Origin: a virus
Reading direction: 5' to 3' (one strand)
Virus record (IMG/VR): IMGVR_UViG_3300045988_153208
Length of the DNA stretch: 25,827 nucleotides
In this document: in pieces, positions 3,033 to 23,896 of the stretch
Position numbering within the stretch: the stretch's first letter is position 1
Layout of the letters: each line of letters opens with the position of its first letter
The notes under the pieces: generated by a model
The model's database searches: none
Seen by the model: only the letters and a program-made list of their open reading frames with translations
Told to the model about the DNA's origin: nothing
Translations under genes and position numbers: made by a program

Positions 3033-3061
3033 AAACGGGACTCCTTTCTCTCATAATATAA

Positions 3062-3100: not shown

Positions 3101-3146
3101 TACACTTGATTATTCCTATTTAATTTTAAAAAATCAAATAGTTTAA

Positions 3147-3671: not shown

Positions 3672-3733
3672 TCCAAAATCCTCCTTTTACACTTATTTAT
3701 ATTATACTAAAAATTTAGTTTATTGTCAATTTT

Positions 3734-4813
3734 TTATATATGGACATAACGATCGCCCTTGATAAAATTAGTTCCTTTTACTAATTCATCTATTAATTCA
3801 TTTACTTTTTCAGATGCTTTATGAGTAGATAATTGAGCAGCATCTTTTTTTACTGGTTCTGAAATGTATCGAGCAATTTCTAAGGCCACACTACTAGGAG
3901 CTAAATTTTCATCAACAATTTTACTATAAGCTAAAATACCTTTTTCAATAGTAGTAAATGATGCTAAACGAACTCTATTTCGATATTGAGATGTTTGAGT
4001 AGCTCGAGCACCACTTTTTACTTGAAATCGACCAACATCTCCAGCTACCGTGCCACGCATTGTACCTAACGCACTTTTTATATGGCCCCATCCTATAGAA
4101 ACTGATTCATGATCCGCCCAATAGGAAGAAGAATATTTAATATCAATAGATGCTGCTAAAGACATCTTATCCATCAGTGTTAAATTTTCTAAATTATTTA
4201 ATTTTTCATAAATAAGACTATGATGTTCAGCTAAATGCTCTTCAAAAGCTTCAGAAATATAACCCTAATTAACTCGTGGTCTACGTCCTTTAGGTGGATT
4301 ATAAGTTCCTTTAATCATTGATAAATAACTTAAATAATGTTTAGTTAATAACTATTGTATCTATTGACTTGCAGAATCATTTAAATTTTGTGATAAATCA
4401 TCAATAGCTTTTTGTAAATCTAAACCAATTACTTTTCGTCCGTCTTCAGACCTTTCAAATAACCATTCTGCTTTAATCTCTTTAGTAGTATATCGGGTAC
4501 CTTCAAAATAAAAACTATATTCAATATTATCATAAGCATCTATTTTAGGTAAATAAATTTGTAATAATTTACGTAATTCTAATGATATTTTTTGGACTTG
4601 TTTATAAGCCATAAAAGCTTCATTAATTGTATTGGGTTGTATTAATGAAATTTGTTTTAATTTGTTTAAATTATTTTTTAAACTAGTATAATTGTTATTA
4701 GTATTATTTCTAATATTAATAATAATTTCTGTTAAAATAGCAGTCAATTCCTTCAAAGATATAACATTGTCCATATCAGAAGGAGTAAAAATTAATTCTT
4801 GATTGGTAAGCAT
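3734..4813 (-). CDS. Hypothetical protein, 359 aa, tail module (between the major tail and tape-measure genes; possible assembly chaperone). Three in-frame TAGs at 4361, 4352 and 4265.
   Basis: ORF-track fragments 4361..4813 and 3734..4174 are in the same frame. Hand translation of 4175-4360 shows only sense codons plus TAG. ATG at 4811-4813 with AGGAG. TAA at 3734-3736. Confidence 0.5.
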
Positions 4814-4826
4814 TTATTTTCTCCTA

Positions 4827-4868
4827 AAATAAAAAAATGGGGAAGAGGAATAAATCCTCTCCCCATAA
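4827..4868 (-). terminator. Hairpin GGGGAAGAGGA-ATAAA-TCCTCTCCCC plus U-run on the minus strand, between the major tail gene and the next gene. Possibly a partial terminator that sets stoichiometry.
   Basis: Inverted repeat 4838-4866 with A-run 4827-4837 on plus. Similar element at 10002-10040. Confidence 0.5.
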
Positions 4869-4883
4869 AAAATTTTGATTAAA

Positions 4884-5960
4884 TTACCAATTATAACTAT
4901 CGTGAGATTTCTGGTGAACTGTACTATGACGATGTAAATCATCATTATCCAAATACTCAATTACTTGAATTGCAGCCAGAACTTTCTTACTATGATCAAA
5001 ACGAGTATAATCAGGGAATGCATCTAAGGTGAAAGTAAATGTACTTGGGTCACCAGAAGAAGCCATAGTAAAGGTAAAGTTAGACTGAATCTTGCAGTTA
5101 GGAATAATAAATTCAGCAGGCATATCTACACCGTTAGTATCACGGAATAGAGTAGAAGCCTCAAGATAATAGTTACCACCGAACTTATCAGCAGTAATTT
5201 CCATCTGAGTAGCACCAGACTTGCGCTCAGTGTAATAATCAACTAGCACAGAATCGAACTTTAGACGATTTGGTAGAGTGACTACATCGTAAGCTGGGTC
5301 GCCACTTTCGCTCTCATATTTATGTCCTTGATTCTACTCATCTTCATAAGAAGCCAAACCAACATACATTTTATGATCCATAACAGCTACACGATAATAG
5401 GTTTTACCGTCTAGGTCAGTCACAGTCTCAGGCATAGCTTCACTATCAATAGCAGTATCATCACCCTCATGAACAGGAATGTAAGGTTCAGTAGTGATTT
5501 CGCCATTCTTCATAAACATTACATAAGCGAAGTTATCACCAGCATTAGCAGGTAGATAAGGCTTATTTTCAGTATAAACAGCAAATTTAAATCCAGTAGC
5601 ATCAAATTTAAAACGTAAAGAATCGCTTGCATCAACAGTCTCAGTTACATGTTGATAAATTGGCTTATCCTTATTAGCAGCAATTAAACCGGCACCAGAA
5701 AGAATCATAAATCCTTCAGGAGAAATTAAAGCATCCTCCATAGTAAAGGTTAAAGTTCTTTCACCTTCCCATGCTACTAAACGAGAGTTACCACGACCAC
5801 CTTGTGCATATACAGTGGTAGCAGCGCCTTCTAAACTAGAAGTTTTTAGGGTGTCAAAATAAATAACAGGTTCACCAGCATAGAATACCTTATTACCGAT
5901 TTTCTGTGCTGACTTAGCCTTTAGTACAACATCACAAATTTCGCGGACACCGAATTTCAT
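4884..5960 (-). CDS. Putative major tail (tube) protein, 358 aa, with in-frame TAGs at 5334-5336 and 5250-5252.
   Basis: ORF-track fragments 5334..5960 and 4884..5249 are in the same frame, joined by TAG. ATG at 5958-5960 is preceded by AAGGAGG. TAA at 4884-4886. The N-terminal region (ICDVVLKAKSAQ..GEPVIYFDTLKTSSLEG..) resembles TP901/SPP1-type major tail proteins. Position immediately upstream of chaperone/TMP genes. Confidence 0.55.
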
Positions 5961-5984
5961 AGTGTTATTTCCTCCTTGTATTTT

Positions 5985-6716
5985 TAATTAATGAATGTTT
6001 TTCATCCAATTATCCGGGGTCCCTTCAGGTTTACCACCAGCTAAACGCTAGCGCACATCCAGGTCCCAAGCAGTATATAGCGTATATCTCTCCATTAAAT
6101 CATATAATTGGAACATTGTCAGATTTGTCAAATCCTATAATGACATTGAACCTAATCCAATAGTCAAGATTGACATATACTAACTAAAAACACTTACATT
6201 CGAATTACCGTTTTGCGCGGCAACTCGCTGTCTCCCTCGCATTAGCTTTTGAGCAATCTCACGAGCCTTATCGTTGGCAGGATTGAAAGCCTACTAATCC
6301 ATCGGGCCATTGTGCATACAAAAGATTAAACGTAACACTTCTTGTAATGCTTCAAAATTATTTCCATCTATAGTAATAGGAGGAACACCTTCCTTTATAA
6401 ATAATAATGAGTTTGGTGTCACATTTATTTTATATGATGGGAATAATAAATTTAAAACATTTAAAATGTTAGCTTTTTTATCCTTTGTTTCATCCTATAA
6501 CATTATCGTCATAAATATCTAAAAATTATTGATACTGTCTAGAATAGTTTTGTCCTCTATAAACATAGTTTTATGTAAACAGAGGGTCTATGCTCCAATA
6601 AAAAAATCAGATTCCCCAATAAATGAAATTTCTTTTATCCTTGGTTGATGAGCGACTAAATTACATTCAGGAATCAACATATCAGTTCCGCAAATTAAAC
6701 TTAAGCGGTAATCCAT
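5985..6716 (-). CDS. Hypothetical virion protein, about 243 aa, with at least 7 in-frame TAGs including a TAG-TAG doublet at 6291-6296. Start is uncertain (ATG 6714-6716 or 6678-6680).
   Basis: About 230 consecutive codons were hand-translated on the minus strand with no TAA/TGA, in roughly 70% AT DNA. TAA at 5985-5987. The plus-strand ORFs 6310..6522 and 6623..6847 overlap it and look spurious. Confidence 0.45.
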
Positions 6717-7318
6717 TATTTACTAATATAATCCTTGAATTCTTTAATAAATTGTTCCTCTTTAATTTTGCCGCTATTTTTATCAGGATAAGTTGGCATA
6801 TATTTTTCATCTTCACCGCCATGAACAGTGCGATACATCAAACATAACCCAGCAAATTCATCAGTCAAAACAATCTAAGTAGCCCCCACAAATTCTAAAT
6901 AACCAATACCAGTCAATTTTTTCAAATTAAACATTGAATCAATCTCTCCAGCAATTTTATATGGGCGTAATGCATAATCTCTTAAATTCCATTGGTCAAA
7001 ATGACATATAATATCAAATTGAATAGTATTATCTCTAAACTCTGGATTTTCACTGGGAATAAAATTATCAAAATTAATTAATACATAATTTAAAACAGAG
7101 CCATCAACATATAATTTAGGCACTATTTTAATATTAGTTCCTAGTAAACTTAAAGACTAATCTTCAGTAAGATTAGGTTTTTCCATAGCATCACTAGTAG
7201 TATAATATAATAATTTTTTTAAACGATTATTTTTTAATATTTCATTAACAATAATCCCAGTATCTTTTTCCATAGATAGAAAACTTGATTTTGGAATATG
7301 ATATCCGTCTATTCTCAT
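6701..7318 (-). CDS. Hypothetical virion protein, 205 aa. In-frame TAGs at 6875 and at about 7138 and 7157.
   Basis: ATG at 7316-7318 with AAGGAG. Same frame as ORF-track 6875..7123. Hand translation runs to TAA at 6701-6703. Confidence 0.5.
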
Positions 7319-7340
7319 GTTTTCAATCTCCTTTTACTCA

Positions 7341-8495
7341 TTAAAACAATGATTCTACTACTATAGTTTTTCTACTAGTTCCATATACTAAATCAAACTA
7401 ACCACTATAAGTAGAGTCCCACTTAAGTTTAATCGTTGAAAATCCTTTATCATTAGTCCCTTCACTAATAATTCGGACAGGGACATCATTACCTTCAATT
7501 TTCCAAGTCCCTCGAACATTTTTAATATTTAAATTAAAATCATATTCTTTTTTAGGCTTAATAAAGGTTTCACCAACTATATTTAAAATTTTATTATTAT
7601 CTTTGTTATCATCTATAATTTTACGTTTTAATATTGGATCTGGTATTTTAAATACATCAGCCAATCCTGCATCTCGGTCATCTGTAAATTCATTAGCATA
7701 ATATTCAACAGCATTTACTTCAATAACACCAGTCATGCTAATATTATTTACAGCTTCAACTCTCCAACAGGTATCATAAACCGAACCATCTTCCGGCCAA
7801 ATATAAAACTTCTAATACCGTTTAAAAAATTTCAAAGTTTTTTCATTTTTAGGAATTAATAAATTTAAAGAATAATTTGGATTATCTACGCTAGTAGTAT
7901 GTTTTTGAATATAATCAATTTTAGTTTCTACTGGACCTCGATTAGCCACATAAACTACATTTAATTCATCATCCATCATAAATGGAATTTGATAGGTACA
8001 TCTACGAACGTCCCCACGGAAATAAGCTAATTCATCTAAATCCTATAAATAAATTAACCAATAAGTTCCAGTATTACACCATTCAAATACATCTCCACAA
8101 TTAAATTTATGTTCAAATCCAATCGAAATAACTTTATCATCATAATCCTATTTTAATTTATTAGGATTTATTAATGCTCGAACAGGAGGTAAAATATTTT
8201 TTTCTTTTTTAGTTTCTACCTCTGTGGCCGCACATTTACGCACCCAAGCCGCCTAATAAGAATATTTAGTAGCTTGGTCTAACGAATGTCGTTTATCTTT
8301 GATCATTCGCTACTATTGGGCAAAACCACCCGCACTCATTAATCTTTTAGCCATATCTAAACTACCATCAACTGAATCTGGCTAAGGAATTTTTATACTT
8401 GTATCACCTAAACGAGCCCCTACAAGATTTACACTTTTATTAGTATTTAAACCATAAGGTAATAATTTTTCCATCTTTTCTGGACGTTTTGGCAT
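7341..8495 (-). CDS. Hypothetical structural protein, 384 aa. About 12 in-frame TAGs, including a TAG-TAG doublet at 8310-8315.
   Basis: ATG at 8493-8495 with AGGAG (rc of about 8506-8510). All 384 codons hand-translated with no TAA/TGA. Ends at TAA 7341-7343. Includes ORF-track fragment 7398..7736. Confidence 0.5.
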
Positions 8496-8755
8496 TACTT
8501 TTTAATCTCCTATAATAAACTAATACATTCAAATACAGTTTTTCTATAAATTGAGAACTCAATATCATTTAAAACATTTAGCCCTTCTAATTTACTAAGC
8601 AACTATAAAAATCGCGGGTCCTAAATAAAAATTTCATTTAAGCCCGCAATTTCAATAATAACTGTATTTAATTGTTTATCCCAATCTTCTTCATTTTCTC
8701 TCATAGGGATTAATTTCCACAGTTGATTAGTTAATCTTACTATATTTTTCTCCAT
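8495..8755 (-). CDS. Small hypothetical protein, about 86 aa. Its stop overlaps the ATG of the downstream gene (TAATG).
   Basis: ATG at 8753-8755. Minus-strand translation MEKNIVRLTNQLWKL... has 3 in-frame TAGs and ends at TAA 8495-8497. Weak RBS. Confidence 0.3.
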
Positions 8756-8783
8756 GACTTCATTAGAAATATCTGTATGATAT

Positions 8784-9371
8784 TTAGTTATCATAAGGAT
8801 AATTCTTATAATGAAATACGCCCCAATTGGATTCGTATTTCCCTTCTACTAATTTACGACGTTTATATAAACGTTGCATATGGAATGATTGTCTCTAACA
8901 CTCACTTAATAAAGACATCAATTTTTGTAAATGATTAGCCTATGAAGTCATTTTAAAATCTGAACCACTATATTTCATACGAGTGTGTTCAATAGAAGTG
9001 ACTTGGCGTTGTACCCAGTTCACCATCATCAATATAGCTAAAATATTAATTTCCTCCGGTGTTAATTCAACTCCAAAAGATGAATGCTCTACCATTACAC
9101 GAGGAGGGCGGATTTCTGATTCTTCATCTGTTTCATCTTCCCACAAAAGACCAATTACAAAATCATCTTCTAATATTTCATCTTCATATTTAATTTCCTA
9201 ATCAATAGTATAATTATAAATATCAAATCTAGGAAATTCAAATTCAGGTAAAATATTTAAAAGTATCGCACGCAAATCTTTAATTGTGTCTTCTGGAGTT
9301 AATTCAATATAAAGGTCATCAGTAATTTTCCCAAGGAAGCGATTATAAATATCAGTGAATTTAGTTCCCAT
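8784..9371 (-). CDS. Putative head-tail connector/adaptor-type protein, 195 aa, with an acidic central patch. Three in-frame TAGs at 9198, 8940 and 8895.
   Basis: ATG at 9369-9371 with AGGAGG. Hand translation MGTKFTDIYNRFLGKITDDLYIELTPEDTIKDLRAILLNILPEFEFP... runs continuously to TAA 8784-8786. Includes ORF-track 8940..9146. Position downstream of the capsid gene. Confidence 0.4.
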
Positions 9372-9392
9372 GATACGCCTCCTATTTATTTA

Positions 9393-9980
9393 TTATTCAG
9401 CAGATTTAGTTTCAGTTTGCTTTACTACTTTGTAAGCATTCCCAGATGTACGACGTCCTGCGGGAGCAGATTCTGTAACACGTCTTTCAGCTGGCTTATC
9501 TGCGATAGTTTCCTTTTTATCATCTTCTTTACTAGCGCGGTCATTTTCAATAGCCTTATCTACGTCAAAACCAGTTTTAGCTTTTAGAGCTTCACGCTTA
9601 GCCATATCAGTAATAGGCAATTGAACAGACATAGTTTTAATCAAATCAATAACCCCAATAGGAGCAAAATCAAGAGCATCTAAAAATGCATCAATAGAAC
9701 CACTAAGAATTAAATCACGCACTTGCTCTTCTGACATATTATATTCAGGCTCACGATGGACATTTAAATCATCAGTAACTTCATTTTCCATAATCTGTAA
9801 GAAATTAGCAATTAACTCACGACCGCCGGGTTGATAAGTCAATTTTTCTAATTCACTAAATGGAATACGCTTTACTTCACCGGGTGCCCACTCACGTCTC
9901 AAGTTACTCTCAGGAATTCTATATACAACAACACTAGTACTTCTATTTTTTACATTAAACATATCTTCAGAATGAATCAT
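9393..9980 (-). CDS. Hypothetical virion protein, 195 aa, basic Ala/Arg-rich C-terminus. No in-frame TAG.
   Basis: Complete ORF in the track. ATG at 9978-9980 preceded by AAGGAG. TAA at 9393-9395. Confidence 0.6.
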   Translation of the reverse strand: MIHSEDMFNVKNRSTSVVVYRIPESNLRREWAPGEVKRIPFSELEKLTYQPGGRELIANFLQIMENEVTDDLNVHREPEYNMSEEQVRDLILSGSIDAFLDALDFAPIGVIDLIKTMSVQLPITDMAKREALKAKTGFDVDKAIENDRASKEDDKKETIADKPAERRVTESAPAGRRTSGNAYKVVKQTETKSAE

Positions 9981-10001
9981 TTTATTATCTCCTTTTTCTC
10001 T

Positions 10002-10040
10002 AAAAAAAATAAGGGGAGAGGGAGTAAATCCCTTCTCCCC
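10002..10040 (-). terminator. Hairpin GGGGAGAGGGA-GTAAA-TCCCTTCTCCCC plus U-run on the minus strand, immediately downstream of the putative capsid gene.
   Basis: Inverted repeat 10013-10040 with A-run 10002-10009 on plus. Sequence-similar to the 4838-4866 hairpin. Confidence 0.55.
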
Positions 10041-10065
10041 TTAAACAATAGTTATATTAAGGTTT

Positions 10066-11175
10066 TAATCAAATAGTACCACTCTTACGGCCATCATAGG
10101 TAACAACCTTACCAGTAATGCCATCATAATTCCAAGTATACATTTGACCCATTAAGGAAGTGTCAACATAAGAGCAAATGTTGTTAGCCAACATACAACC
10201 AACGCCGACCTTCTTATAAACCTGAATCTCACGAGAACGATCGTAATTGCTGAATTCATCAACAATAGTTCCACCCTCGAAAGCAATCTTTACAGGCTTG
10301 CCATCAACACCAGTAGGAATAATCCAAGCATAACCAGGATCAATAACCTTACGAGTATTACTTTCATCTTCGAAGCCCTACTCTAAAATAACAACCTTGG
10401 TTCCCTTATAGGTAGCCAAACGGCCAGTATTCCACAGCTCAGTCTTCATAGCTTCAGTATAACGCCAAGCTTCATTAGGAATCATACGAACAGCAAATTC
10501 ATAAGTACAATAAATAGTAGGAGTACCATAAGCAGAAGCAATGGTAATCAAACGATCCATAGCACCCTCATCAAAACCTGCTGCAGCAACGCGGTTAGCA
10601 GGAGGTAGCTGATTGATAGAAGACTTCAAAGCCAAAGCAACTTCCTTATAAATCAGTTCATCCATACCATCCATAATAATCTTGGTAACTTCAGCAAAAT
10701 CAACACGACCATCTAAGAACTCTTCGAAGCCGATTTGAGCAGCTCCGCCGATAGCAGAGGTACGGACCTCAAAGCTCTCGCTCTCAGCAGGTCCCAGCTT
10801 GAAGACTTCATAGATACCAGCCAGTCCAACACGAGTCACAAACTGCTTAGCACGTGCGCGTGTATTTAGAGGACGACGGAAAATGGGCTTATCACCCTGA
10901 GCAAACTGCTTAACTTCAGCAAACTGCTCATAAGACTGAGAAACCTTCTTAGGAAGAACTTCATCCAAAGTCTCCTCAATCATTGAGAAAATTAGATTTT
11001 TATTTTCACGATATAGAGCATTGGTACCAGCCAGCTCGTTCATCTCATTACGTAAAGTATCGTTCAGAGCCTCATAAGAAAGGTTCTGACCATTATAACT
11101 GTAAGCCACAGGAGAAGAAGGATCAGCCTTAGCAACAGTCTTCATTAAAGCAACTAAATTGTTTCTATCTAACAT
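10066..11175 (-). CDS. Putative major capsid protein, 370 aa. One in-frame TAG at 10378-10380.
   Basis: ORF-track 10378..11175 continues in frame through TAG to TAA at 10066-10068 (315 nt in frame). ATG at 11173-11175 with AAAGGAGAG. Position scaffold-decoration-capsid as in lambda/SPP1. Followed by a strong hairpin. Confidence 0.5.
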
Positions 11176-11192
11176 TATTCTTCTCTCCTTTC

Positions 11193-12128
11193 TTACGCAA
11201 TACGTAGAATCTTAGCGCCACGTTGTCCATCAGGCATAGTATATACCTTAACAACCTGCCACTTCATATCCTGACTCTCATCTTTTACAAGAATTCCGTC
11301 AGCAGCTGCTGGAGCTAAAATATCACCAACAGAAACACTATCTTCATTAATCATATTAGTAGTATAATGATCACCAACATTAGTCTTGAAGACACGAGGA
11401 ACCATTGCAGTGCCTGGAGTCATACGCTTCTCATGATAAACACCAAGCTTCTTATATGGATCATTAGTCCAAGTCAGCTCTTCGTAAATGTCAGCAACAT
11501 CAGTTAGAACCTTATCATAAGCATACTTTACAGGCACAGGAGTCTTAGTCTGATTGGTCTTAGGATCAATCTCATACTCTACACCATTATAAGTAAACTT
11601 ATTGTCCTTAACATCATAAACTTCGCCAGCGATGGTAACAGTCTTTAGACCCTGATCTAAAGCAACAGTGTGCTCAAGCACCTTGTGATCAGCACCAGTT
11701 TCATCAACACCATTCCAGAAACGTCCACCATATTCAACCTCGGTATGCTCCCAATCGTATGGAGAATAAATACGAGCCTGATAGTCGTCCTTTAGCATAG
11801 CAAATTCGCAATCCCACTGCTTAGTTCCATCAGGATGATCGCGATATAACTTAATCTCATTATAAACTAGCATCCACTCGCCCTTGCCAGTAAAATTCAC
11901 TTCACCAATACCATTGGCATTAGCAGCGTAATCATACTTGACAAACTGACCGTTTTCAAGAATATTAATACCCTTGTTAGCAGGCAACTGAGCATAAATT
12001 TGAGCGGTTCTTTGTGCAGACAGGTGATTTGGCTCAACCTGACCATAACCAAACTCAACATACTTAGCCTGTGACTTAGGTGGATTTTTACCAACGCCTA
12101 AACGAGAATTTAAAAAATCCTTAAACAT
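11193..12128 (-). CDS. Capsid-associated protein, 311 aa. Decoration-like by position between scaffold and capsid; could alternatively be the major capsid protein.
   Basis: Complete uninterrupted ORF. ATG at 12126-12128 with AAGGAGG. TAA at 11193-11195. Confidence 0.55.
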   Translation of the reverse strand: MFKDFLNSRLGVGKNPPKSQAKYVEFGYGQVEPNHLSAQRTAQIYAQLPANKGINILENGQFVKYDYAANANGIGEVNFTGKGEWMLVYNEIKLYRDHPDGTKQWDCEFAMLKDDYQARIYSPYDWEHTEVEYGGRFWNGVDETGADHKVLEHTVALDQGLKTVTIAGEVYDVKDNKFTYNGVEYEIDPKTNQTKTPVPVKYAYDKVLTDVADIYEELTWTNDPYKKLGVYHEKRMTPGTAMVPRVFKTNVGDHYTTNMINEDSVSVGDILAPAAADGILVKDESQDMKWQVVKVYTMPDGQRGAKILRIA

Positions 12129-12146
12129 TTAAGTATGTCCTCCTTA

Positions 12147-13736
12147 TTAGTTTTTATTGGCTGATTCTAGAACAGCCTTGACCCAAGCTGGCATTCCAGC
12201 ATCTCTGTCATCATCTAAATTGCTTAAATTATAGGTAGTTGGGCCTTTATCATTATTATCATCATCAAGGTTAAAATTAACCTTGTTGCGAACACAAATA
12301 ACAGAAAGTTTTGCTTCAATATCATCAACAGAATACTTATCAATGTTATCAATAACATCTTTCTTATCATCATCAGACAGCATATAGAATGATTGAATCA
12401 TAGCTTCTTTATCCTTGCGTTCAATACTATTTTTAAACTCAGTTAAAGAAGTATTAGTTTCACTTAGAGTTTTATTTTCAGCCTCTAATAAACTAAATTT
12501 ATTTTGTAATTCTTCATATTCTGCCTTTAAGCTAACATATTCTTCAATTTCATCCAAGGAATACTTTTTCTTTTTCTTTTTATCCTCATCATCTTCTGAA
12601 GGATCGTCATCTTCATTTTCTGACTTTTGACCATTATTTTTAGAAGAACCATCATCTTTTTTGTTCTCAGGGTCGCCAGAATTATTGCCCTTATCATCGT
12701 TTGCCTTTTTATTTTCTTCTTCTTCTTGCTTTTTCTTAAATTCGGCTTCATAAGCTTCAACCGCATCTAAAGCAAACTGAGGCTCTGCTGCTGGAGTATA
12801 AGATTTAGTTACTTCAATTAAACCTTCACCAGGAACAAGACCATCAGAATCACTCAAAGAAAAGTTTAAACGATAATATTTCATATCTCCGCGGTCTTGA
12901 AGAATAGCAAATTTTTGACTATTATCTTCAAAAACGCCATCAATACGATATTTAGAGCAATAATTGTTAGAGCCATCAGGGAAAGCCTTATTTACATATT
13001 CCCATAAAGCACTCCATAGAGAATCTCCGATTTCTACGGCATATCTATTAAACACTTTTGCTCCTCCTTCTTTTAATAATTCTTTTAGTTCGTTCATCAT
13101 TGAGTATAGTTCATTTTTAAAACTATCATCAAATGAAAGAGAAAACTTTGTAATAGAGGAGCCTTCGAAGCAAGGTTCACACTCTTCTCCTAAAATACAA
13201 AGTTTAGAAATAATTGCTTCATTAATAATGAAAAACTACGGCTTTCCATTATTATCTTTCGTCCAAGTTCCATCTAAAGTACCTTCATCGAGCTCCATAG
13301 AATGATTATTGCCTTGCTCAATGATGCGCTTACATTCTGGATATTGGCCGGTCCATAAATATCCTTCAGTCATAAGATATTCATGTTCATTAACGCCATC
13401 ATCTAAAAATTTCTAAAACCAAACCTTGGCACCTAAATCTACAAAACCATAAGGTTTAGTAGTGTCTTTCATTTCAAACTTTCCGTTTGAAATATCAATA
13501 ATTCTATTGTGTTCCTCAAAATCTCCATTAGATTCATTATAAAAGCCAACAATAGGACTGCCAGGGAGACTATTAGCCATCTCCCTCGCAGTTTCTTTAG
13601 AAATAATGCTTCGATTGCGATTTGGTTCATCCCCAACGTAGCAAACTTTAATTTGGCATTTAGAAATCAAAGGATTAATAGGAGTTACATTAATAAATTC
13701 ACAAGGCGTTTCAAGTTTAATACTTTGATGCTTCAT
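12147..13736 (-). CDS. Capsid scaffolding protein fused to an about 210-aa N-terminal domain (possibly prohead-protease-like), 529 aa. In-frame TAGs at 13413 and 13236.
   Basis: ORF-track 13413..13736 and 12147..13100 are in the same frame. Hand translation of 13101-13412 shows no TAA/TGA. ATG at 13734-13736 with AAGGAGG. C-terminal half is highly acidic with coiled-coil-like repeats (EYEELQNKFSLLEAENKTL) and a K-run, typical of scaffold proteins. TAA at 12147-12149. Confidence 0.5.
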
Positions 13737-13747
13737 GATTTACCTCC

Positions 13748-15409
13748 TTAATTCATTGACTCTTTATTTTTTATGGTTTTTTCACTTTTCTAATCATCAG
13801 CCTTTTCAGGTCGCCCAGACTATTTTGTTTCAGTAGTCTGTTTTGTAGTAGTCTATTGATTACTACTTCCTGAATTATTTTGTGTTTTATTCTAATTGTT
13901 TGAACCTTTATTACCCAAAACATCTTGACTACTCATAGTAGAAGACATTAATGGTGGGATCATAATTTCAGTTAATTTCAACACATCATTTTCAAATACC
14001 GCAGTATTTAAAATAAAACTCTAAGAGTGACCAAGAGCAATTTGAGGTAGCATCTTAGAATAACCAAGTTGCGTTTGTTCTTTATATAATTTTGACATTT
14101 CTTTATAATTATATTGTGTAGTTTCAAGCATATAAAATTTAAAACTATATTTCTTATTGTTCGCAACTTTCATCTTTACTATTCTATCAAAAAAAATGTT
14201 AAATTGCAACAACAAGTTTCTAACAGTTGATTCATCATTAAGGATAGACTTCTCTAATGATAAATTACCATCAGTATTAAATAGATTTTGAGAAATACCT
14301 AAATTATTATAAACAGTACGTTCAACTTTTGCTAAATCATCTGTAGTAGTTGTAGTATTTTTATCTGATAAATCAATAGATTGAACATCAGTAAATGTTG
14401 TTAAAACATCAACACCAATAGCTCTTGATAACATAGCAACAGCATTATTATGTATGTCACGAGATTCATCAATATCAAATATTAAATCGCCATTTTTATC
14501 CATTGGAAGTTTTTGAACAATAATTTTTAACAACTTCTACATTTGTTTTCTGCGGTCTAAATCTTGAGCAGCATCTAAATCCATAAGAGCAGGGATAGAA
14601 TTAATAAATGGTGGGACATCACTACCATTAAAATTAAATTTCACACTTAATTCTGGAGATAGTAAATACCAACTTCCACTATAATCTCCCTTAATATCAG
14701 GAAGTAATTTTCCTTTCTTATATAAAACATATCCGCGCTAAAATTCTTCGGGGAATAATTTTAATACGCGCATACGATAATTAGGATCTGGAAACTAATC
14801 AAAAAACCGCATGTCAAACTCAATCGCTGGCATACCAGCCACAAAATATCTAGAACGGCAATAACTAGCAGGTAATTCTTGTAGCATTAAACTATTTGCA
14901 GATTGCACTATATATCCATAATAACAACCATTTTTCATAATACTTTGAGCAATATCACCGCAGATTTTTTTAATATAAGTATTATCTAAATAATTTAATA
15001 ACTTTGAAAAATCTTTTAAAACTTTTTCATCTTTTACTGTATCATCTAAAATCTCTGGAGCGACATACCAATCATATCTATACAAATAAGCAAAATAATT
15101 ACATACTCGCTCATAAATGCCGCTTATATCATAAAATAAATTAGAAATTCTACGCATTTCAACAATATCACGATTTATCATAGCTCGTAATACATCATTT
15201 TTAGTGACCATGCGACATGGTCCACGACGATTAGGATATAGCCGAGCAAATGACCCTAAATCTAATACAGCATCATCTAATGTTTGAACCCCAACTTTTA
15301 TTTTACGATATTCTGTTGGATCAGCAGTTCGATAATCACTTGTTCCATTGCTGATATTAAATCCTTTGGAGTGGATGATTTCCTAACGTGATAATTCTTT
15401 AGTATCCAA
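13748..15409 (-). CDS. Portal protein, 553 aa, with a Q/T/N/S-rich C-terminal tail and multiple in-frame TAGs.
   Basis: Putative TTG start at 15407-15409, 7 nt after AAGGAGG. Same frame as ORF-track 14795..15211 and 14021..14533. Hand translation continues to TAA 13748-13750. Located between terL and scaffold. Sequence FYDISGIYERVCNYFAYLYRYDWYV is portal-like. Confidence 0.55.
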
Positions 15410-15421
15410 AATTCCACCTCC

Positions 15422-15778
15422 TTAATATCCAGCTAATTGCATTATATAATCATATGTAATAAGATTTTCATCTGTATAAGGAATCTCTATTAATTTAAAA
15501 TCATGTAAAGCACAAAAACGTCGTTTTTGATTATCATTATATTGTTGTTGATATAAACCTTTTTTACCACCAAATTTTGCGCTAGGCTCATAATGCTATT
15601 TACCCTAATATTCAATAATAAAATCAATTCTACCATCATCATCAAAAACGACAAAATCGAAACGTAAGGGTCTGCCACTTGGTGCCTTCAAATCTGGGAA
15701 AATATACTCCATCTTAAATGGTAATTCAGCTTGTCGCAAAATCTCTTCAATTTTAATTTCGCCTCTAGACGCTCTCAT
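15422..15778 (-). CDS. Small Vsr/DUF559-like (PD-(D/E)xK) endonuclease, 118 aa. Possible free-standing homing endonuclease between terL and portal. Two in-frame TAGs.
   Basis: ATG at 15776-15778 with GAGGAGG. Translation ...LRFDFVVFDDDGRIDFIIEY[TAG]GK[TAG]HYEP... carries a D..(I/V)E..G..H-type motif. TAA at 15422-15424 overlaps the portal RBS. Confidence 0.35.
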
Positions 15779-15788
15779 AATTACCTCC

Positions 15789-17522
15789 TCAATTCAAGAA
15801 ACACCAATCTTTAGCATTAAACTTTTTACGTTTCTTCTTTTTATCTTCTTCTAATTTTAAATAATATAGTCCATATTCAAAAGCAGAAAATTTATCTTTT
15901 CGGATACTTTTATTTGCTTGTTTCAGGATAATATTTACTCCTTCAGTTTCTTCACGCAAATTCATCATTTCTTCTTTTAATATGGAAGTTAATGTAAATG
16001 GTTTTAATTCTTCTGCCCTCTATTCTGGAGTCATAGTTTGACCTTTCTTTTTAGCAAGAAGTTTATTTTTTGCTACGCGCTCATCAATTAAAAATTTCAC
16101 TTTTCCAGAAGCAAGTTGTGATTTAGCAATCGCGTGAGCTTCTGTATTAAGTGGCGCATTAGCTTTTATAATATACATAGCATCTAATACTGTATTAGAT
16201 GTTTTATATTTTTTATAAAATAAATCATCGTCATTAACAACACCAAAATCAGGGAAAATTTCATTGGTTTCAGGATCAATCTACGTCTTAACCATGTAAT
16301 CAATTAAACCAATTCCTAAACCATTACCATCAATTACAATTCTATCAGCATTATATTTATAATATAATTTTTTTAATTTAATAGTTTGGTCTTCAAAATG
16401 TTCATCAGATAATGTATATATATTCACTAGACTTTTAATCGACCCACCTTGTGATTGTGGAGTTACTTTAAATACACAAATAACTGAATCGCATCCTTTA
16501 CGACCAACGTCGACAGCAAGTACATAAGATGCTAATTTTGAATTACGCCCGGATGCTTCATATTCAGGCTAATTTAATATTCTATTTCTATCAAATATTT
16601 CAGCATTAAAAAATGCATCTTCTACAGTGCCAGACCATTTACTTTCATATTCTCGATCAAATGAACTTTCATTGAACGTTCCGTCCATTTTTAGGTCTTT
16701 AATAAAATTCGCATCTAATAATTTCATTAAAACAGGAATACGATAAGTACCACCCATAATAATAGATTGCTAAGGTTTAACAATCTCCCAAACTAATAAT
16801 TGGATTAATTTATCATAGGGGAAAGTATTTTTATATCCAGCAGTAGTAATATAAATTTGAGATTTATTAAGAGTTTCATCAGGTTGAGTAGTACCATCCA
16901 TACACATACGAGAAATATTCATTGTAGGAATAATAACTTGTGATAGAATATCACCATCAACACCAACACACTCTTCAATTAAACCACCATGGCGACGTTT
17001 ACCACGAGAAGACTCTCTTGCAGCAATATTATCAAAATATGAACCATTTTTAAATACATATTTAACATAATCTTTACCTTCAAGAGTTTGACCACGGCGC
17101 CAATCTATTTCTTTCTAAAATGCAGGAATAAGAGTACAAATTTCTTGAACTTTTTCTTTTACAATTCCAGCCGCTTGTTCTTTACCTCCAGAAGTAATAA
17201 ATAATTTACATCTGGGATATAAAATCGCACGACACATTAAGACCATCATTGACAAAAAAGATTTTGAATAAGCACGAGGGAATACAGCATAAATATATTT
17301 ATGACGCATCGCAGCGCGCAAAAAGATTCTCTAATAAAAATAGAGTTTAAAATGTTGAGGGCCGCCATCAGGTCCTGCCATGAAGTCGATAAACATATCT
17401 GGGTATTCTCTCCAAAAGGCTATGTACTATCTTGCTTCTGGTATAATTGCACGAAGACGGTCCTCTGAAATTCCAATCTTTTTACGCTTCTAAGATAAAT
17501 CAAGTAAATCCTATAAAGCCAT
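15789..17522 (-). CDS. terL: Terminase large subunit, about 577 aa, with multiple in-frame TAGs.
   Basis: ATG at 17520-17522 (AAGGA RBS). Same frame as ORF-track 17115..17321 and 16569..16757. Contains a Walker-A-like motif (AVFPRAYSKS), an ..RHGGLIEE.. segment, and a C-terminal nuclease-like region. TGA at 15789-15791. Confidence 0.6.
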
Positions 17523-17523
17523 A

Positions 17524-18720
17524 TTATCCTTCTAAATTTCTTAAAGTCTGAGCATCTATTTCAGATTCTTCCTCAAGGAAATCATTATATTCAATTAAAT
17601 CTTCATCTTTAAGATGATCGATTTCCTCCATCGTTAAATCTTCTTCAATATCTTGGTCTTCTTCTTTATTTTCTTCTTCTTGCATTTTCTTAATAGCCCC
17701 TTCAATGAGATTACCTAGATTCATCTCTTCAGTGACTAATGTGTGTGTATAATTCTTTAAATCTTGTAAAGTTTCATCAACTTTATCTTTTGGACCTTCT
17801 GTATAATACCGAGGGATAAATCCTTCAGTCTCACACATGGCTACTAATTCTCCAATAGAATCAAATGCTTCTCCTGTATCTGCTTTGTTTTGAGCGGCGG
17901 TGAAATTACCTGATTTCATTAGACTATCATAAACCTTGCTCATCTTTTGGAAACCTTCGATATCACCAATATCGATCAACTAGTTTGCTTTTAAGGATGT
18001 CTTACAAATTAATTTTAATGTATCAATATGACCAGCGCCGCGGATATCATAAGAACTCATCATTTCTTCATAGAGTTGCTCTAGTTTAACCCATTCTTCG
18101 GGTTTATACGCTTTACCCCACTTCATACGAAGATATAAAATATCTTCTTCTGTTAAATCGAGGTCATCTGCTGGGTCATGTTCAATACCATTCTATTGAT
18201 CAAAATAATCATCACCATCTCTAAAACGTTCTGGTAATTCAGGAGTGTAAGGTTTTAATTCTTCTTCTGGAATAGCGACAGTAGATTTAGCAATAGCTGT
18301 TGCTATTTGCTGGGCATCATAACCTTGTCGTTTCATAGTTTGTTCTAATTTATTATTAGCCACTTCCTATAAAAACTCAGAATCTTTCCATCGATAATCT
18401 CTATATTGTTTAAGTTTCATTTTGGACAAATATCTACCTAAAATACTCATACCAGTTAATTTAGATTTATCTTGTCCATATTTTACCATCAATTTACTCC
18501 ACTCATCTGGAACATAAGGTACATCAATTTCTTGTAGAATCCACATATAAGTTTCTGGATTCCAATTATCTACAAGCATTGTAATACATTTTTTACATTG
18601 AGGGAGTTTTCCATCATTTGGATATTTTTCTAAATTATTAGATGTATAAAACTGGTCAGCGCCCATAGTTCTATTACATCGTTCGCAATAATATACTTTT
18701 TTATCATTATCTACAGTCAT
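17524..18720 (-). CDS. 398-aa protein with an N-terminal Cys4 zinc ribbon (CERC..x23..CKKC) and a very acidic C-terminus. Possible terminase small subunit or DNA-packaging partner. In-frame TAGs at 18367, 18193 and 17980.
   Basis: ORF-track 18367..18720 and 17524..17979 are in the same frame. Hand translation of 17980-18366 shows no TAA/TGA. TAA at 17524-17526 sits immediately before the terL ATG. Confidence 0.4.
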
Positions 18721-18756
18721 AATTTTCCTCCTTATATCTATCCAATAACAGGCATC

Positions 18757-19827
18757 TCAAAATTATAACTGTTTGCCCTTGTTTTTAGCATTACGGCATT
18801 TTTTACAAATACTATAATAACCATCTTTACTAGTTTTATTTTTGCTAAAATATTTATTATGTGCTAATTTAATTTGCCCACAGCGACTACATTTTTTATA
18901 TTTACCTTTTGCTTTATGTAAATAATAATCATATAGGTATTGGTCTTCAGCCGCAGAGGCGATTAATTTTGGAATTTTATTGCGCCATAAACTAGAAATA
19001 TATTCTAAACTATGAGTAATATTAAATTCCTCTTGAATTTTCTTTTGAATGTCTATATTCTATAATCCATCAATTTTATATTCAACTATTCTATCATATA
19101 AGGGATAATCTTTAAGAGCAATGGTACATAAATTATCGAAATCTTCCATAATATACCATAAATCTCTTTCAAAATCTCCCCAACTATCTTGCTTTAAACG
19201 AGAATAATTACATAAAATTGCAGAACATACTCTAGGGTCTAAGAGTGAAACGCCATCCGGAATTGGATAACCATCATCATCAAAAATGCAAGTCGTGTCC
19301 TCTAATGGAATAAAATTTCTTGAACGAGTAATTTTAGTCATAACAATTGGACGACGAACTGCATTTTTAATAACATACTAATCTTTACGCATTTCAATAA
19401 TAGCACGTTTAATTATAAATGCTTCGCGTCCTTCACTAACTCGTAATTTGGCTTCCCAAGTAGTAATGGCGTCTCTTAACTATTTTAAATGAGGTATTTC
19501 TTCTATATCTTTTTTAGTAATTGTAATCTTAGGCTAAAATATTGTATTTTTATTTTCAGTAATTAAATTATAAATTCCATCTTCGCCATTCTCAAATTGG
19601 GAAACAAGACCTTCAAAAGATGTTTCACGCTTATTAACTGTTGCCATACGATTATCAGTTAATAATTTACGCTCCTTTTTCTCTTGTTTCTCCATACAAA
19701 GAATGATATAGTCCCCTAATATTTCTAAATATCGAGGAGAGGGGTCTGGGGTTTCCTCTAATATTTTCTTGACTAATTCATTTCTTTCTTCTGGAGTTTG
19801 TAAGGAATAATCTAATTTTATCATCAT
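18757..19827 (-). CDS. 356-aa hypothetical protein with a C-terminal Cys4 zinc ribbon (CSRCGQ..x17..CKKC). First gene of the leftward operon. Four in-frame TAGs.
   Basis: ORF-track 19534..19827 and 19060..19341 are in the same frame, joined through TAGs at 19534, 19480 and 19378. TGA at 18757-18759. ATG at 19825-19827 with GGAGG. Confidence 0.45.
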
Positions 19828-19852
19828 TACCTCCAGATTTTTTTACGTCTTC

Positions 19853-21203: not shown

Positions 21204-21521
21204 ATGGAAGATGGAAAAAATTATTTTGATATTGTAATGCGAGAAGGCCAAGCAATAGTTCATAATGAAGGTTCTATTCATTAGGTTGATAGTTTAGGCC
21301 GTCTTGTTTTTCCTAAAAATTTAAGACAAAAATATGGTATTACTCCTGGTGACCGCATGGAATTTTATACTATTGAATATAATGGTGAAGTTTATGTTGG
21401 AGTGCGAGTGAGTAAACGATATGGTAGTAGAATAGAGTATTTACGCGCTAAAGAAGTATTAGATGATTTGGGAATTGAGATTCCTCAAAAACTAACTGAT
21501 GCTATTAATGGAGTAATGTAA
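21204..21521 (+). CDS. AbrB/MazE/SpoVT-family (swapped-hairpin) DNA-binding protein, 105 aa, with an in-frame TAG at codon 27 (21282-21284).
   Basis: GGAGGAG RBS. Hand translation MEDGKNYFDIVMREGQAIVHNEGSIH[TAG]VDSLGRLVFPKNLRQKYGITPGDRMEFY... carries the classic VDxLGRxVIPKexR..GI..GD motif. TAA at 21519-21521. Absent from the ORF track because of the TAG. Confidence 0.55.
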
Positions 21522-21522
21522 T

Positions 21523-21666
21523 ATGCCTAAGTATAAAAGTTTTGGAAATGCCCTCGCTGCTAAAATGCAGAAAAAGGCTAATTATTATGCTACTAAAGCA
21601 GTTCATCAAATTGTATGGGGTGAAAACCCTAAACGTGGTCGTCCTAAGAAGGAGAATAAGAAATGA
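21523..21666 (+). CDS. Small basic protein, 47 aa (..GRPKKENKK).
   Basis: ATG at 21523 with GGAG 9 nt upstream. Stop TGA overlaps the next ATG. Confidence 0.35.
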   Translation: MPKYKSFGNALAAKMQKKANYYATKAVHQIVWGENPKRGRPKKENKK

Positions 21667-21746: not shown

Positions 21747-21956
21747 TTCTTTTTACCGTTATCTGAATTGAAAAAAGTTTTGGTGAGAGTTTGTACCAGC
21801 CAAACAAAAAAATAAAAATCAAAAAAAATTTTTTCCCGAAACCCACCCCCCCGGTCGGTTTTTATCTGAGAAAAAATCTGAACACTATCGAGACCTTCTT
21901 GGGCTTGGCGCACGCGGAAAGGCTAGACCATCCCCAATACAGCCCCTCAACTCGCA

Positions 21957-22041: not shown

Positions 22042-22070
22042 TAGACACGCATCCTGAAATCTGGTATAAT
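22042..22070 (+). promoter_or_regulatory. Promoter TAGACA-N17-TGgTATAAT driving the 31-aa peptide gene.
   Basis: TAGACA at 22042-22047, TATAAT at 22065-22070, with an extended -10 TG. Confidence 0.5.
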
Positions 22071-22095: not shown

Positions 22096-22191
22096 ATGTC
22101 TATCATCTACAAAGTCGTGCGCTTCATCACCGCGGTCGCTGTTGTCGCGGGCACTGGCATCCTGATGTGCCTCATCTGCCTCCCTCATTGA
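22096..22191 (+). CDS. 31-aa hydrophobic peptide (MSIIYKVVRFITAVAVVAGTGILMCLICLPH), its own transcription unit. Small membrane peptide, possibly type-I-toxin-like.
   Basis: AAAGGAGGAA RBS 8 nt before ATG 22096. TGA at 22189-22191 lies inside the terminator stem. Confidence 0.5.
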   Translation: MSIIYKVVRFITAVAVVAGTGILMCLICLPH

Positions 22192-22204
22192 GGGAGGTTT
22201 TTTG
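22179..22204 (+). terminator. Intrinsic terminator CCTCCCT-cattg-AGGGAGG plus T6.
   Basis: Perfect 7-bp GC-rich stem followed by TTTTTT. Confidence 0.7.
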
Positions 22205-22210
22205 TTGCCC

Positions 22211-22291
22211 TAAGATTGTTAAAAATTTAACGATGTAGCAAGATTGTTAAAAGATTAACAATGTAGCAAGATTGTGAAAGATTTAACAATC
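22211..22291. repeat. Three tandem about 28-bp repeats (tAGCAAGATTGTTAAAArtTTAACaATG), each containing the palindrome TTGTTAA-N4-TTAACAA.
   Basis: Copies at 22211-22235, 22236-22263 and 22264-22291, read directly. Confidence 0.8.
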
Positions 22292-22295
22292 ACTC

Positions 22296-22400
22296 AACCA
22301 AGAGAGGACAAGGACACGCACGGCACAGTGGACAAGGCAAAGCGAGCCAACGAGCGAGCGACCAACAGACAAAGAGAACAACAACACAACACAACACAAT
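22296..22400. other. About 100-nt tract almost devoid of T on the plus strand (A/C/G only; CA and CAA repeats, ACAACAACACAACACAACACAA).
   Basis: Direct reading; extreme strand composition skew. Confidence 0.8.
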
Positions 22401-22408
22401 GATAGATA

Positions 22409-22430
22409 CATTGTTAATGTATTAACAATG
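22409..22430. promoter_or_regulatory. Operator-like palindrome CATTGTTAAT-gt-ATTAACAATG (10-bp perfect arms) between the two skewed tracts.
   Basis: Direct reading. Confidence 0.6.
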
Positions 22431-22432
22431 TA

Positions 22433-22505
22433 GTATAGTAGTATGGTATGGTATGGTAGGGTATGGGGTGGGGTGGGCTATGGGTAGTGGGTAGGGAGAG
22501 AGAGT
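22433..22505. other. About 73-nt C-free G/T/A tract with TATGG/TAGGG repeats and a G-quadruplex-type motif (GGGGTGGGGTGGGCTATGGGTAGTGGGTAGGG).
   Basis: Direct reading; four or more GGG runs separated by 1-5 nt. Confidence 0.75.
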
Positions 22506-22726
22506 AGACCAACAATAAGAGATGCGGACGCGCTTCCCACCGGTCGGCTCACCGGGAACCGCGCACAACAAATCTAATGTAAGTATTCTATTTCTCTTTT
22601 GGGTTCATCATCGTTAACGGCCCTAATCGCCCAAGAATAAGCCCTCGCACAATTGCCAAACAACACAGCAGGGCAGGCGCTGAACCGCGCGTATCCCGCA
22701 ACACACAGCTCTCACAGAGGAGCGAG

Positions 22727-22753
22727 CAAGATTGTTAAAAGTTTAACAATGTG
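22727..22753. promoter_or_regulatory. Operator-like palindrome copy (CAAGATTGTTAAAAGTTTAACAATGTG).
   Basis: Matches the repeat consensus. Confidence 0.55.
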
Positions 22754-22840
22754 AGAGCCAAGAGCAAGAGAGTAAAGAGTGCGCTTGCACAGGTAGCAAG
22801 GAGGATACACACGGCACAGTTGATACATTCGCTGACCGAG

Positions 22841-22866
22841 CAAGATTGTTAAAAAATTCACAATGT
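22841..22866. promoter_or_regulatory. Operator-like palindrome copy (CAAGATTGTTAAAAAATTCACAATGT).
   Basis: Matches the repeat consensus. Confidence 0.5.
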
Positions 22867-22890
22867 GTGGATGTGGTGAAGTCGCTGTTT

Positions 22891-22911
22891 AATTGTTAAA
22901 AATTTCACATT
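22891..22911. promoter_or_regulatory. Degenerate operator-like copy (AATTGTTAAAAATTTCACATT).
   Basis: Partial match to the consensus. Confidence 0.4.
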
Positions 22912-22990
22912 CGCTGTTGGATGCCGAACACGGTCGCAACGCCCCAGACTTCACCACATTAAAGTGTTAAAGAAAAAAAATTGCAAATGC

Positions 22991-23012
22991 GATTGTTAAA
23001 ATAATCACAATC
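22991..23012. promoter_or_regulatory. Operator-like copy (GATTGTTAAAATAATCACAATC) about 40 nt upstream of the promoter at 23054.
   Basis: Matches the consensus. Confidence 0.5.
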
Positions 23013-23053
23013 TTCATCCCGAAAATAAATAGGTTATTTTTGAAAAAACCTCT

Positions 23054-23081
23054 TGACAAATTGCCCTATGTGTGCTACAAT
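23054..23081 (+). promoter_or_regulatory. Promoter TTGACA-N16-TGcTACAAT for the two-gene operon 23112-23550.
   Basis: TTGACA at 23054-23059 and TACAAT at 23076-23081. Confidence 0.55.
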
Positions 23082-23664: not shown

Positions 23665-23853
23665 ATGAAGAACATCTATGAAATCGAGAACATCATCGAC
23701 GAAATCCCCGCTGATGATTGGGCTGGCATTTGTAATCTGATGGACTACTACTATCAGTCGAATTTCTCCGCTGACGCTGAACAGAGACTGGCAAGGGCAA
23801 TCGCTCCTTACGGCTTGACCGCAGAGGAAATCCTGACCTGGGACGCTGAATAA
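23665..23853 (+). CDS. Small acidic protein, 62 aa.
   Basis: RBS AAATGAGGTACACAAA and ATG at 23665. TAA at 23851-23853 lies in the terminator loop. Confidence 0.55.
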   Translation: MKNIYEIENIIDEIPADDWAGICNLMDYYYQSNFSADAEQRLARAIAPYGLTAEEILTWDAE

Positions 23854-23868
23854 GCGTCCTATTTTTTT
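23841..23868 (+). terminator. Terminator GGACGC-tgaataa-GCGTCC plus T7.
   Basis: Direct reading. Confidence 0.6.
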
Positions 23869-23876
23869 GCTGTTGG

Positions 23877-23896
23877 ATTGTTAAAATTTTAACGAG
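23877..23896. promoter_or_regulatory. Operator-like palindrome copy (ATTGTTAAAATTTTAACGAG) between the terminator and the antisense promoter.
   Basis: Matches the TTGTTAA-N4-TTAAC consensus. Confidence 0.5.

Follow-up and report, generated by a model that had tools for sequence, protein, structure and literature searches.

An array of Rex-type operators in the early region of a large gut or rumen phage: a possible docking platform for a host redox repressor

Why should a phage repeat one palindrome many times over in DNA that appears to encode nothing, and which protein would read it? The question is raised by positions 22203-23050 of a 25,827-nucleotide stretch of viral DNA (IMG/VR record IMGVR_UViG_3300045988_153208; "the window" below is this stretch at its full length), which comes from a phage of gut or rumen Bacillota belonging to a clade of large phages. 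A preliminary description had noted here a 0.85-kb noncoding region with a nine-copy array of the palindrome TTGTTAA-N4-TTAACAA, and had taken it for the target of a multi-site DNA-binding protein, naming repressor, partition and replication-initiator sites (iterons) as well as a packaging-recognition (pac) region as options. As set out below, the palindromes match the operator of Rex, a redox-responsive bacterial repressor, and to judge from the sequence they probably form a Rex operator array that is bound by the Rex protein of the host. What such an array might do for the phage is a separate question, to which we offer a more tentative answer.

Scanned with the degenerate motif TTGTKAA-N4-TTMACAA at no more than one mismatch, the window yields exactly nine sites (five of them exact matches) where 0.07 would be expected, and none of 100 shuffles reached nine. 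The strict form TTGTTAA-N4-TTAACAA at no more than two mismatches gives ten matches against 0.85 expected; we rejected the tenth, at 14398, as a chance match, lost with the degenerate motif at one mismatch or fewer. All nine copies reported earlier are present, each within about 5 nt of where it had been placed, and eight of them lie inside the 0.85-kb stretch. This stretch is bordered on the left by the intrinsic terminator of a tiny-peptide cassette (22178-22204, plus strand) and on the right by the promoter of the next early cassette (23053-23081, plus strand), a TG-extended sigma-A-type TTGACA-17-TACAAT. The boxes are laid out as a tandem triplet on the left, a single box in the centre, four boxes on the right and a ninth downstream of an antisense promoter. 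The triplet (R1-R3, at 22216-22233, 22244-22261 and 22272-22289) is made of three tandem 28-bp units, as had been claimed; Tandem Repeats Finder reports a 28-bp array of 2.8 copies at 22212-22290, and the units begin about 12 nt past the T-run of the tiny-peptide terminator. The central box, R4 (22411-22428), is the centre of a perfect 24-nt palindrome, ACATTGTTAATGTATTAACAATGT, and sits between a T-free and a G-run tract to which we return below. To its right follow R5 (22732-22749), a perfect consensus; R6 (22846-22863), with the right half-site TTCACAA; R7 (22893-22910), which has TTCACAT, one mismatch; and R8 (22993-23010), whose end lies 42 nt upstream of the -35 element of the 23053 promoter. 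R9 (23878-23895) starts about 10 nt past a terminator (23839-23861) and its T-run, occupies roughly +32 to +49 of a consensus antisense promoter (23963-23934, minus strand), and is kept in both close relatives. The flank repeat CACGGCACAGTKGA, likewise noted before, is real (22311-22332 and 22802-22823, 86% identical) and recurs in close relatives only.

That the 0.85-kb stretch holds no credible gene, as the preliminary description had proposed, is borne out in two ways. Its open reading frames (ORFs) are all of 49 amino acids or fewer, with no correctly spaced Shine-Dalgarno site before any of them (by reading), and among three sequences at about 95% identity seven indel events fall in the 848-nt stretch, against none in 711 nt of neighbouring coding sequence. 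We considered and rejected a 42-amino-acid ORF on the plus strand and a hydrophobic 42-amino-acid ORF on the minus strand in the T-free tract, which have no Shine-Dalgarno site and in close relatives contain an indel of 1-2 nt. A structured RNA is not supported either: the core folds with z-scores of about 0 on both strands, and neither Rfam (at gathering and E-value thresholds) nor a tRNA scan returned a match. Distant relatives such as L063 place small genes between some of their boxes, and the gene-free stretch is therefore particular to this phage and its close kin. Within the stretch, substitutions are distributed unevenly. Among close relatives 4 of 112 columns vary in the arms of the palindromes and 7 of 32 in the spacers, with 75 of 704 variable in the remaining noncoding DNA. 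Constrained half-sites around free spacers are the pattern expected of an operator for a dimer, and the idea of a multi-site target for a dimeric DNA-binding protein has stood up well: the half-sites are more conserved than spacers and surroundings, and the array itself persists in relatives whose structural genes are only 65-70% identical.

Which dimer might this be? Gram-positive anaerobes sense NADH/NAD+ mainly through Rex, a dimeric winged-helix repressor that is bound to DNA when the NADH/NAD+ ratio is low and released as NADH rises. The window motif equals TTGTTAANNNNTTAACAA, the consensus of the Clostridiaceae-type Rex operator (Ravcheev 2012, as cited in PMC9600882, PMC5367854 and PMC8457756), also described as Clostridia-type. 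In C. thermocellum this consensus has been confirmed by DNA affinity purification sequencing (DAP-seq) and electrophoretic mobility shift assay (EMSA). A more general Rex consensus, TTGTGAA-W4-TTCACAA, has been given for S. aureus (PMC2883068), and it is towards the half-sites of this general form that the window's own variants depart: R3 has TTGTGAA (TTGTTAA in the same box of two close relatives), R6 and R7 are of the TTCACAA type, and at R7 the close relative c163 reads TTGTGAAAATTTTCACAA, that is TTGTGAA-N4-TTCACAA, the canonical general Rex operator. The same holds for the clade at large. In a table of 361 boxes, made without bias toward T/G and A/C variants, 23 of 28 substitutions at position 5 are T to G and 28 of 32 at position 14 are A to C, so that the prevailing substitutions at these two positions produce exactly the alternative Rex half-sites. 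The spacers of the nine window boxes are A/T-rich at 32 of 36 positions. What we find, in sum, is an 18-bp inverted repeat with an A/T-rich 4-bp spacer whose variation runs largely to the alternative half-sites of the Rex family. A bacterial positive control (L161, an Erysipelotrichaceae metagenome-assembled genome from gut Bacillota) shows the classical arrangement. Two such boxes closely precede an operon for a NuoE/NuoF-type NADH oxidoreductase; the first abuts the -10 element of a TATAAT promoter-like site (read by eye) and the second lies about 20 nt further downstream. Motifs of other Firmicute regulators (cre, CodY, Spo0A, Fur/PerR, DnaA and LexA) are not arrayed in the early region of the window.

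The preliminary description had looked to the phage for a protein partner. The motif turns out to be the published operator of a host repressor. The phage material gave no Rex homologue, whether in a motif-guided scan of the viral collection, by tblastn or in a hidden Markov model (HMM) search of six-frame translations of all array loci. B. subtilis Rex alone, used as a query against viral contigs, found no match, and a five-sequence Rex alignment found a single unrelated contig, L177, with the match at the contig end. Because no Rex homologue was detected in the phage material, host Rex is the most economical partner. Rex binding itself, together with the direction and target of any control, we infer from the motif, its excess over chance and its conservation.

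How widely is the array kept? Relatives were retrieved from the viral collection with two queries, a 15-mer of flank plus box and a pattern requiring two perfect boxes. In close relatives (88-98% identity) all nine boxes are present. In relatives at 65-70% structural-gene identity the early regions are unalignable, yet 6-15 boxes lie just past the late operon. With the two-perfect-box pattern, 43 of 2.9 million viral contigs were hit, as were 18 of 32.2 million prokaryote contigs, and at least five of these 18 share proteins with the phage clade. Altogether there are 64 array-bearing loci including the window, 40 of them in one protein-linked super-clade, whose longer contigs measure 100-170 kb, and a second, unrelated lineage with contigs of about 50 kb carries a box pair. 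Metagenome bins that hold clade contigs are assigned to Lachnospiraceae, Acutalibacteraceae, Christensenellales and Clostridia. The arrays thus show what has been described for clusters of host-regulator sites, namely a density far above chance in intergenic DNA that is kept through divergence and also in a second lineage. Sister phages (L019, L121, L127, L133 and L141) add a second host motif, Cheo-type LexA boxes (CGAAC-N4-GTTCG) at 8-16 per array; in L019 these are interleaved with Rex boxes at 539-1157, and L127 packs 31 Rex boxes and 16 LexA boxes into 12 kb. The window's early region has no such LexA array. A further intergenic motif family, CACTTTAAAGCGGTAAAGT or GCGCTAAAGT, accompanies Rex box pairs in L143 (6500-9850), L063 (12660-13330) and L120 (7030-7070) and is not evident in the window.

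This distribution bears on another explanation, in which the repeats are a pac recognition site or selfish or neutral repeats without a protein partner. In its favour, the repeats lie in a noncoding stretch near the structural module, which includes the gene for the terminase large subunit (15789-17540, minus strand), and the copies have spread as units with shared flanks (GCAAGA). Even so, we regard this explanation as highly improbable: half-sites are more tightly constrained than the DNA around them, different lineages share the motif without sharing its flanks, and arrays lie in the interior of long contigs, at varying positions. The pac suggestion in particular suffers from the distance of about 4.7 kb between array and terminase gene, an interval that includes an operon and a divergent promoter region. 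A genome terminus at 22590/22591 was also considered and rejected, the two loci that break there being adjacent pieces of one contig. Nor are the copies a low-complexity coincidence, which the preliminary description had named as the outcome that would undo it, given that they are conserved in distant relatives.

The DNA between the boxes has features of its own. A nearly T-free tract of A, C and G (22292-22405, plus strand; strictly T-free at 22330-22399) ends in a conserved junction, ACAATGATAG, and a C-poor tract with runs of G (22430-22510, plus strand) contains a G-quadruplex-type motif at 22459-22496. The same type of T-free tract and the same junction adjoin Rex arrays in L120, L125 and L134, with T-free tracts also in L078 and L089, and a 16-nt stretch of the G-run tract, TATGGTAGGGTATGGG, is identical in L134. 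G-quadruplex-type motifs are rare in the clade (five in 380 kb), and all of them lie within 381 nt of a Rex box. The order of the core (T-free tract, ACAATGATAG, G-run tract, flanked by boxes) is repeated in L134 and L125. In relatives the core sites are at 3950-4130 of L134, 770-950 of L125 (reverse strand), 6709-6810 of L120 and 5737-5807 of L078. An R-loop or origin-like element, or DNA kept deliberately free of promoters as a spacer, are ideas as to what this core is.

An origin-like core would suit a different scenario, in which a protein of the phage itself binds the boxes and their resemblance to the Rex operator is convergence or coincidence. The protein might be the AbrB/MazE-type regulator encoded at 21205-21521 (plus strand) or an unrecognised winged-helix protein, and its task early-gene shut-off, replication initiation at iterons or an origin, or partition. 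The regulator gene passes the Pfam MazE/AbrB cutoff, requires the TAG at 21282-21284 to be read as sense, and lies just left of the array both in the window and in L122; the in-frame TAG suggests that the protein appears only after recoding has set in, as would be fitting for a factor that shuts off early genes. Some clade members, moreover, carry two or three paralogous small winged-helix-like genes in the same region, and most arrays fall in one super-clade. Several observations nonetheless make the scenario unlikely. A match over 18 positions to a known operator, including its alternative bases, is hard to obtain by chance. We know of no AbrB-type protein that reads 7-N4-7 palindromes, and the synteny of gene and array is not general, since searches of most array loci, and of the second lineage, gave no AbrB homologue. 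The winged-helix-like family (about 110-140 amino acids, sub-threshold matches, 1-3 per locus) is present in the early regions of L121, L127, L133, L134, L141, L156 and L158, but neither the window nor the available pieces of close relatives have a member of it. We therefore rejected both as partners, for want of consistent co-occurrence with arrays. Family scans recognise no DNA-binding domain in the neighbouring small proteins, and nothing links the AbrB-like gene or the small basic proteins, the candidates named in the preliminary description, to the boxes. Its replication and partition suggestions fare no better: there is no DnaA box in the early region right of 21700, and among the neighbours scanned neither an initiator gene nor a ParA/ParB or ParM/ParR operon was recognised. 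Classical iterons are directional, whereas the units here are palindromic, and the core between the boxes is GC-rich and strand-asymmetric rather than AT-rich. Finally, genuine LexA box arrays in sister phages indicate that this region collects sites for host factors.

If the boxes are indeed read by host Rex, what purpose might they serve? The array occupies the left end of a region of small-gene cassettes, whose start coincides exactly with a sharp rise in GC content near 21.7 kb, from about 30% to about 44%. Right of this step the cassettes have recurrent consensus or near-consensus sigma-A promoters, strong Shine-Dalgarno sites (of the AAGGAGG type in those neighbouring the array) and intrinsic terminators; this is a Bacillota-style early module. 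Because the phage appears to encode no Rex, the noncoding stretch could be a docking platform for the Rex of the host, coupling the phage to the host's NADH/NAD+ ratio and allowing a redox-gated sensing or deferral of its programme. We put this forward, by analogy with known systems, as a possibility that we hold with less than even confidence. The platform would sit at the start of the early cassette region, which host RNA polymerase transcribes. When the cell is resting or oxidised, Rex would fill the boxes, holding down firing from the central core, where R4 overlaps two weak divergent promoter-like sites (TTGTTA-17-TATAGT at 22411-22439, plus strand, and TTGTTA-18-TATCAT at 22428-22399, minus strand), and blocking transcription through the flanks as well as the 23963 antisense transcript. 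In actively fermenting cells, where NADH is high, Rex would leave and the module would be released. The phage would thereby read the metabolic state of its host and defer or pace its programme accordingly, and relatives with added LexA boxes would combine redox with DNA-damage signals. Some local features fit a sensor of this kind: the boxes flank a conserved core, R4 overlaps promoter-like sites, R9 lies just downstream of an antisense promoter, and in L143 a box pair stands upstream of the promoter of each early cassette.

A number of points weigh against operators bound by host Rex, or against a sensor built from them. CRP/FNR-family sites share the core TGTNA-N6-TNACA with the boxes. The DNA inspected covers about 26 kb and the contigs of close relatives span 100-166 kb, and a clade-specific phage protein may mimic the specificity of Rex, a thought to which the concentration of 40 of 64 array-bearing loci in one super-clade lends some weight. 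The promoter-like sites over R4 are weak, each matching at 9 of 12 positions. More generally, boxes keep away from core promoters: of 95 boxes within 150 nt of a strong sigma-A promoter none is centred between -50 and +10, with peaks at -80 to -120 and +30 to +40, and of the window's eight strong early promoters only about two lie within 60 nt of a box (by reading). A -10-only promoter analysis is too noisy in AT-rich DNA to inform. The arrangement of classical Rex repression is thus not what we see, since boxes lie off core promoters and no metabolic gene is adjacent among the neighbours scanned. Arrays of 10-14 tightly packed boxes of consensus grade, moreover, exceed normal regulatory need.

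Some of these points would be natural if the boxes served to sequester host Rex (and, in sister phages, LexA) rather than to regulate phage genes. Imagine that replicated phage operators come to outnumber those of the host: the Rex regulon, with its functions in fermentation and NAD+ regeneration, would be de-repressed and would fuel phage production. The host would be taken over at the level of DNA, from a position inside the early cassette module. A sponge of this kind would account for boxes that avoid core promoters, unlike those of the bacterial control, and for dense tandem arrays without promoters such as those in L124 (10-11 boxes at a 24-bp period), L122 (12) and L120 (9). Box quality is high, with 178 perfect boxes in 369 kb of clade loci, which were partly selected for perfect boxes, against none in 916 kb of unrelated viral loci. 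For a Caproicibacterium genome only 27 Rex sites have been predicted, those listed being off consensus, and a single phage locus holds up to 31. The presence of a second host repressor motif, that of LexA, in parallel arrays points the same way. Set against this, a lone infecting genome, with its nine sites, would tie up little Rex until it had replicated; the fixed arrangement of boxes around a conserved non-box core in the window, L134 and L125 speaks for a local function, as does the box pair before each early promoter of L143; and our literature searches turned up no precedent for phage DNA acting as a decoy of a host repressor. We consider titration, the main rival, rather unlikely, and keep to the docking platform as our tentative account of function.

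The surroundings of the array are phage DNA. Minus-strand genes at 3-19842 are continuous only when TAG is read as sense, which raises stop-free coverage from 12.5 kb to 24.7 kb. They include the portal gene (13748-15421, minus strand) and, first in the late operon, a phage sigma-factor-like gene (18763-19842, minus strand; phrog_5767, E = 1.6e-53, TAG read as Gln). The match to phrog_5767, annotated as a sigma factor, suggests that host polymerase transcribes the late genes with a sigma factor supplied by the phage. No in-frame TAG occurs in the cassettes right of about 21.8 kb, and because TAG as sense is confined to genes left of the early cassettes, code usage separates late and middle genes from early ones. 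Close to this boundary, at 21523-21666, is a gene for a very basic 47-amino-acid protein with no Pfam or PHROG match, whose C-terminal KRGRPKKENKK we take to resemble an AT-hook. A conserved element, TAAAAATCAAAAAAAATTTTTTCCCGAAACCCACCCCCCC / AAAAAAAATTTTTTCCCGAAACCCACCCCCCC (21813-21852, plus strand), lies left of the array where GC content rises from 30% to 44%; it recurs in many distant relatives, with matches in L137, L148, L140, L171, L128, L130 and L154, and in relatives elements of this type lie to one side of the Rex array, in several cases a few hundred nt away. Upstream of it is a unit of about 33 bp, TTTTACCGTTATTTGAATTGAAAAAAG, which is duplicated in one close relative. Directly left of the array is the cassette for a hydrophobic 31-amino-acid peptide, MSIIYKVVRFITAVAVVAGTGILMCLICLPH, a stand-alone unit on the plus strand with its own promoter (22042-22070), Shine-Dalgarno site, coding sequence (22096-22191) and terminator (22178-22204), which is kept in close relatives. 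Two promoters that match the consensus perfectly (TTGACA, 17 or 18 nt, TATAAT, TG-extended) run antisense to the early cassettes at 23963-23934 and 24868-24840 (minus strand), and a transcript from the first would pass through R9. Over about 7 kb further right, a close relative shows only more small cassettes together with a nucleotidase-like and an exonuclease-like sequence (by inspection). Searches of cultured-phage DNA found no relative of the window, and a dense array used as a DNA query against cultured phages returned nothing comparable.

Were host Rex to be the partner, this clade would provide the first example of phages that couple infection to the redox and fermentation state of the host, and Rex would extend the short list of host regulators co-opted by phages (LexA, Spo0A and CtrA). 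Either function would be new: sensing the state of the host, as a metabolic form of "lytic deferment", or manipulating it through titration of a repressor. In the latter case the phage would switch on host fermentation, NAD+ regeneration and SOS functions without any phage protein, a takeover by noncoding DNA. The arrays are common in uncultured large gut and rumen phages, including at least one whose late genes use TAG as a sense codon, and could serve as a regulatory handle and as a marker of host phylum.

How does the array compare with known systems? Bacterial Rex operator (ROP) sites have the same 18-bp inverted repeat, the same A/T-rich spacer and the same alternation of T/G at position 5 and A/C at position 14. 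They occur singly or paired on core promoters of NADH-linked metabolic genes, as in L161, whereas the phage boxes number nine over 1.7 kb here, with as many as 31 at a single locus of a relative, adjoin no metabolic gene, lie off core promoters and are nearer to consensus. Titration provides a second comparison. The E. coli datA locus and P1 incA are titration loci or iteron arrays for the element's or the cell's own initiator or activator. Like the phage array, they repeat a single operator many times, tightly packed, in noncoding DNA, and the function could reside in the number of copies as such; they differ in that here a host repressor would be titrated by an invader. Synthetic decoy arrays have also been described (PMC3322331). 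Dispersed repressor sites offer a further parallel, in that many of them are spread over short intergenic regions, much like the Rex and LexA boxes of L127, L133 and L141. The stoperators of mycobacteriophage L5 are asymmetric, orientation-dependent 13-mers bound by the phage's own repressor; the boxes here, in contrast, are palindromes and likely to be read by a host factor.

A last comparison is with phages that borrow a host regulator. In our literature searches we found no report of Rex operators in phages or prophages. Phages of Alphaproteobacteria, by comparison, carry clusters of CtrA sites, for which binding and regulation have been shown experimentally and interpreted as "lytic deferment" (Mascolo et al. 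2022, PMC9437464). As in the Rex arrays, dense sites for a global host regulator fill gap regions of about 1 kb, terminal repeats (DTRs) or ORFan-rich early regions, are kept through strong divergence and in more than one lineage, and score above typical sites. The differences are that the CtrA clusters concern the cell cycle, lie in promoter regions and have demonstrated binding, and that the array described here concerns Rex, NADH/NAD+ and Bacillota, avoids core promoters and has been read from sequence. The Spo0A boxes of phi29 and the co-option of LexA by GIL01, CTXphi and others (as cited in PMC9437464) likewise have the phage carrying operators of a host master regulator to suspend or trigger its own programme, with the difference that these are few sites overlapping promoters. 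Co-option of a global host regulator through clusters of sites is, then, a known phenomenon; new here are Rex as the regulator, NADH/NAD+ as the signal, the scale of the arrays, their pairing with LexA boxes and the host group.

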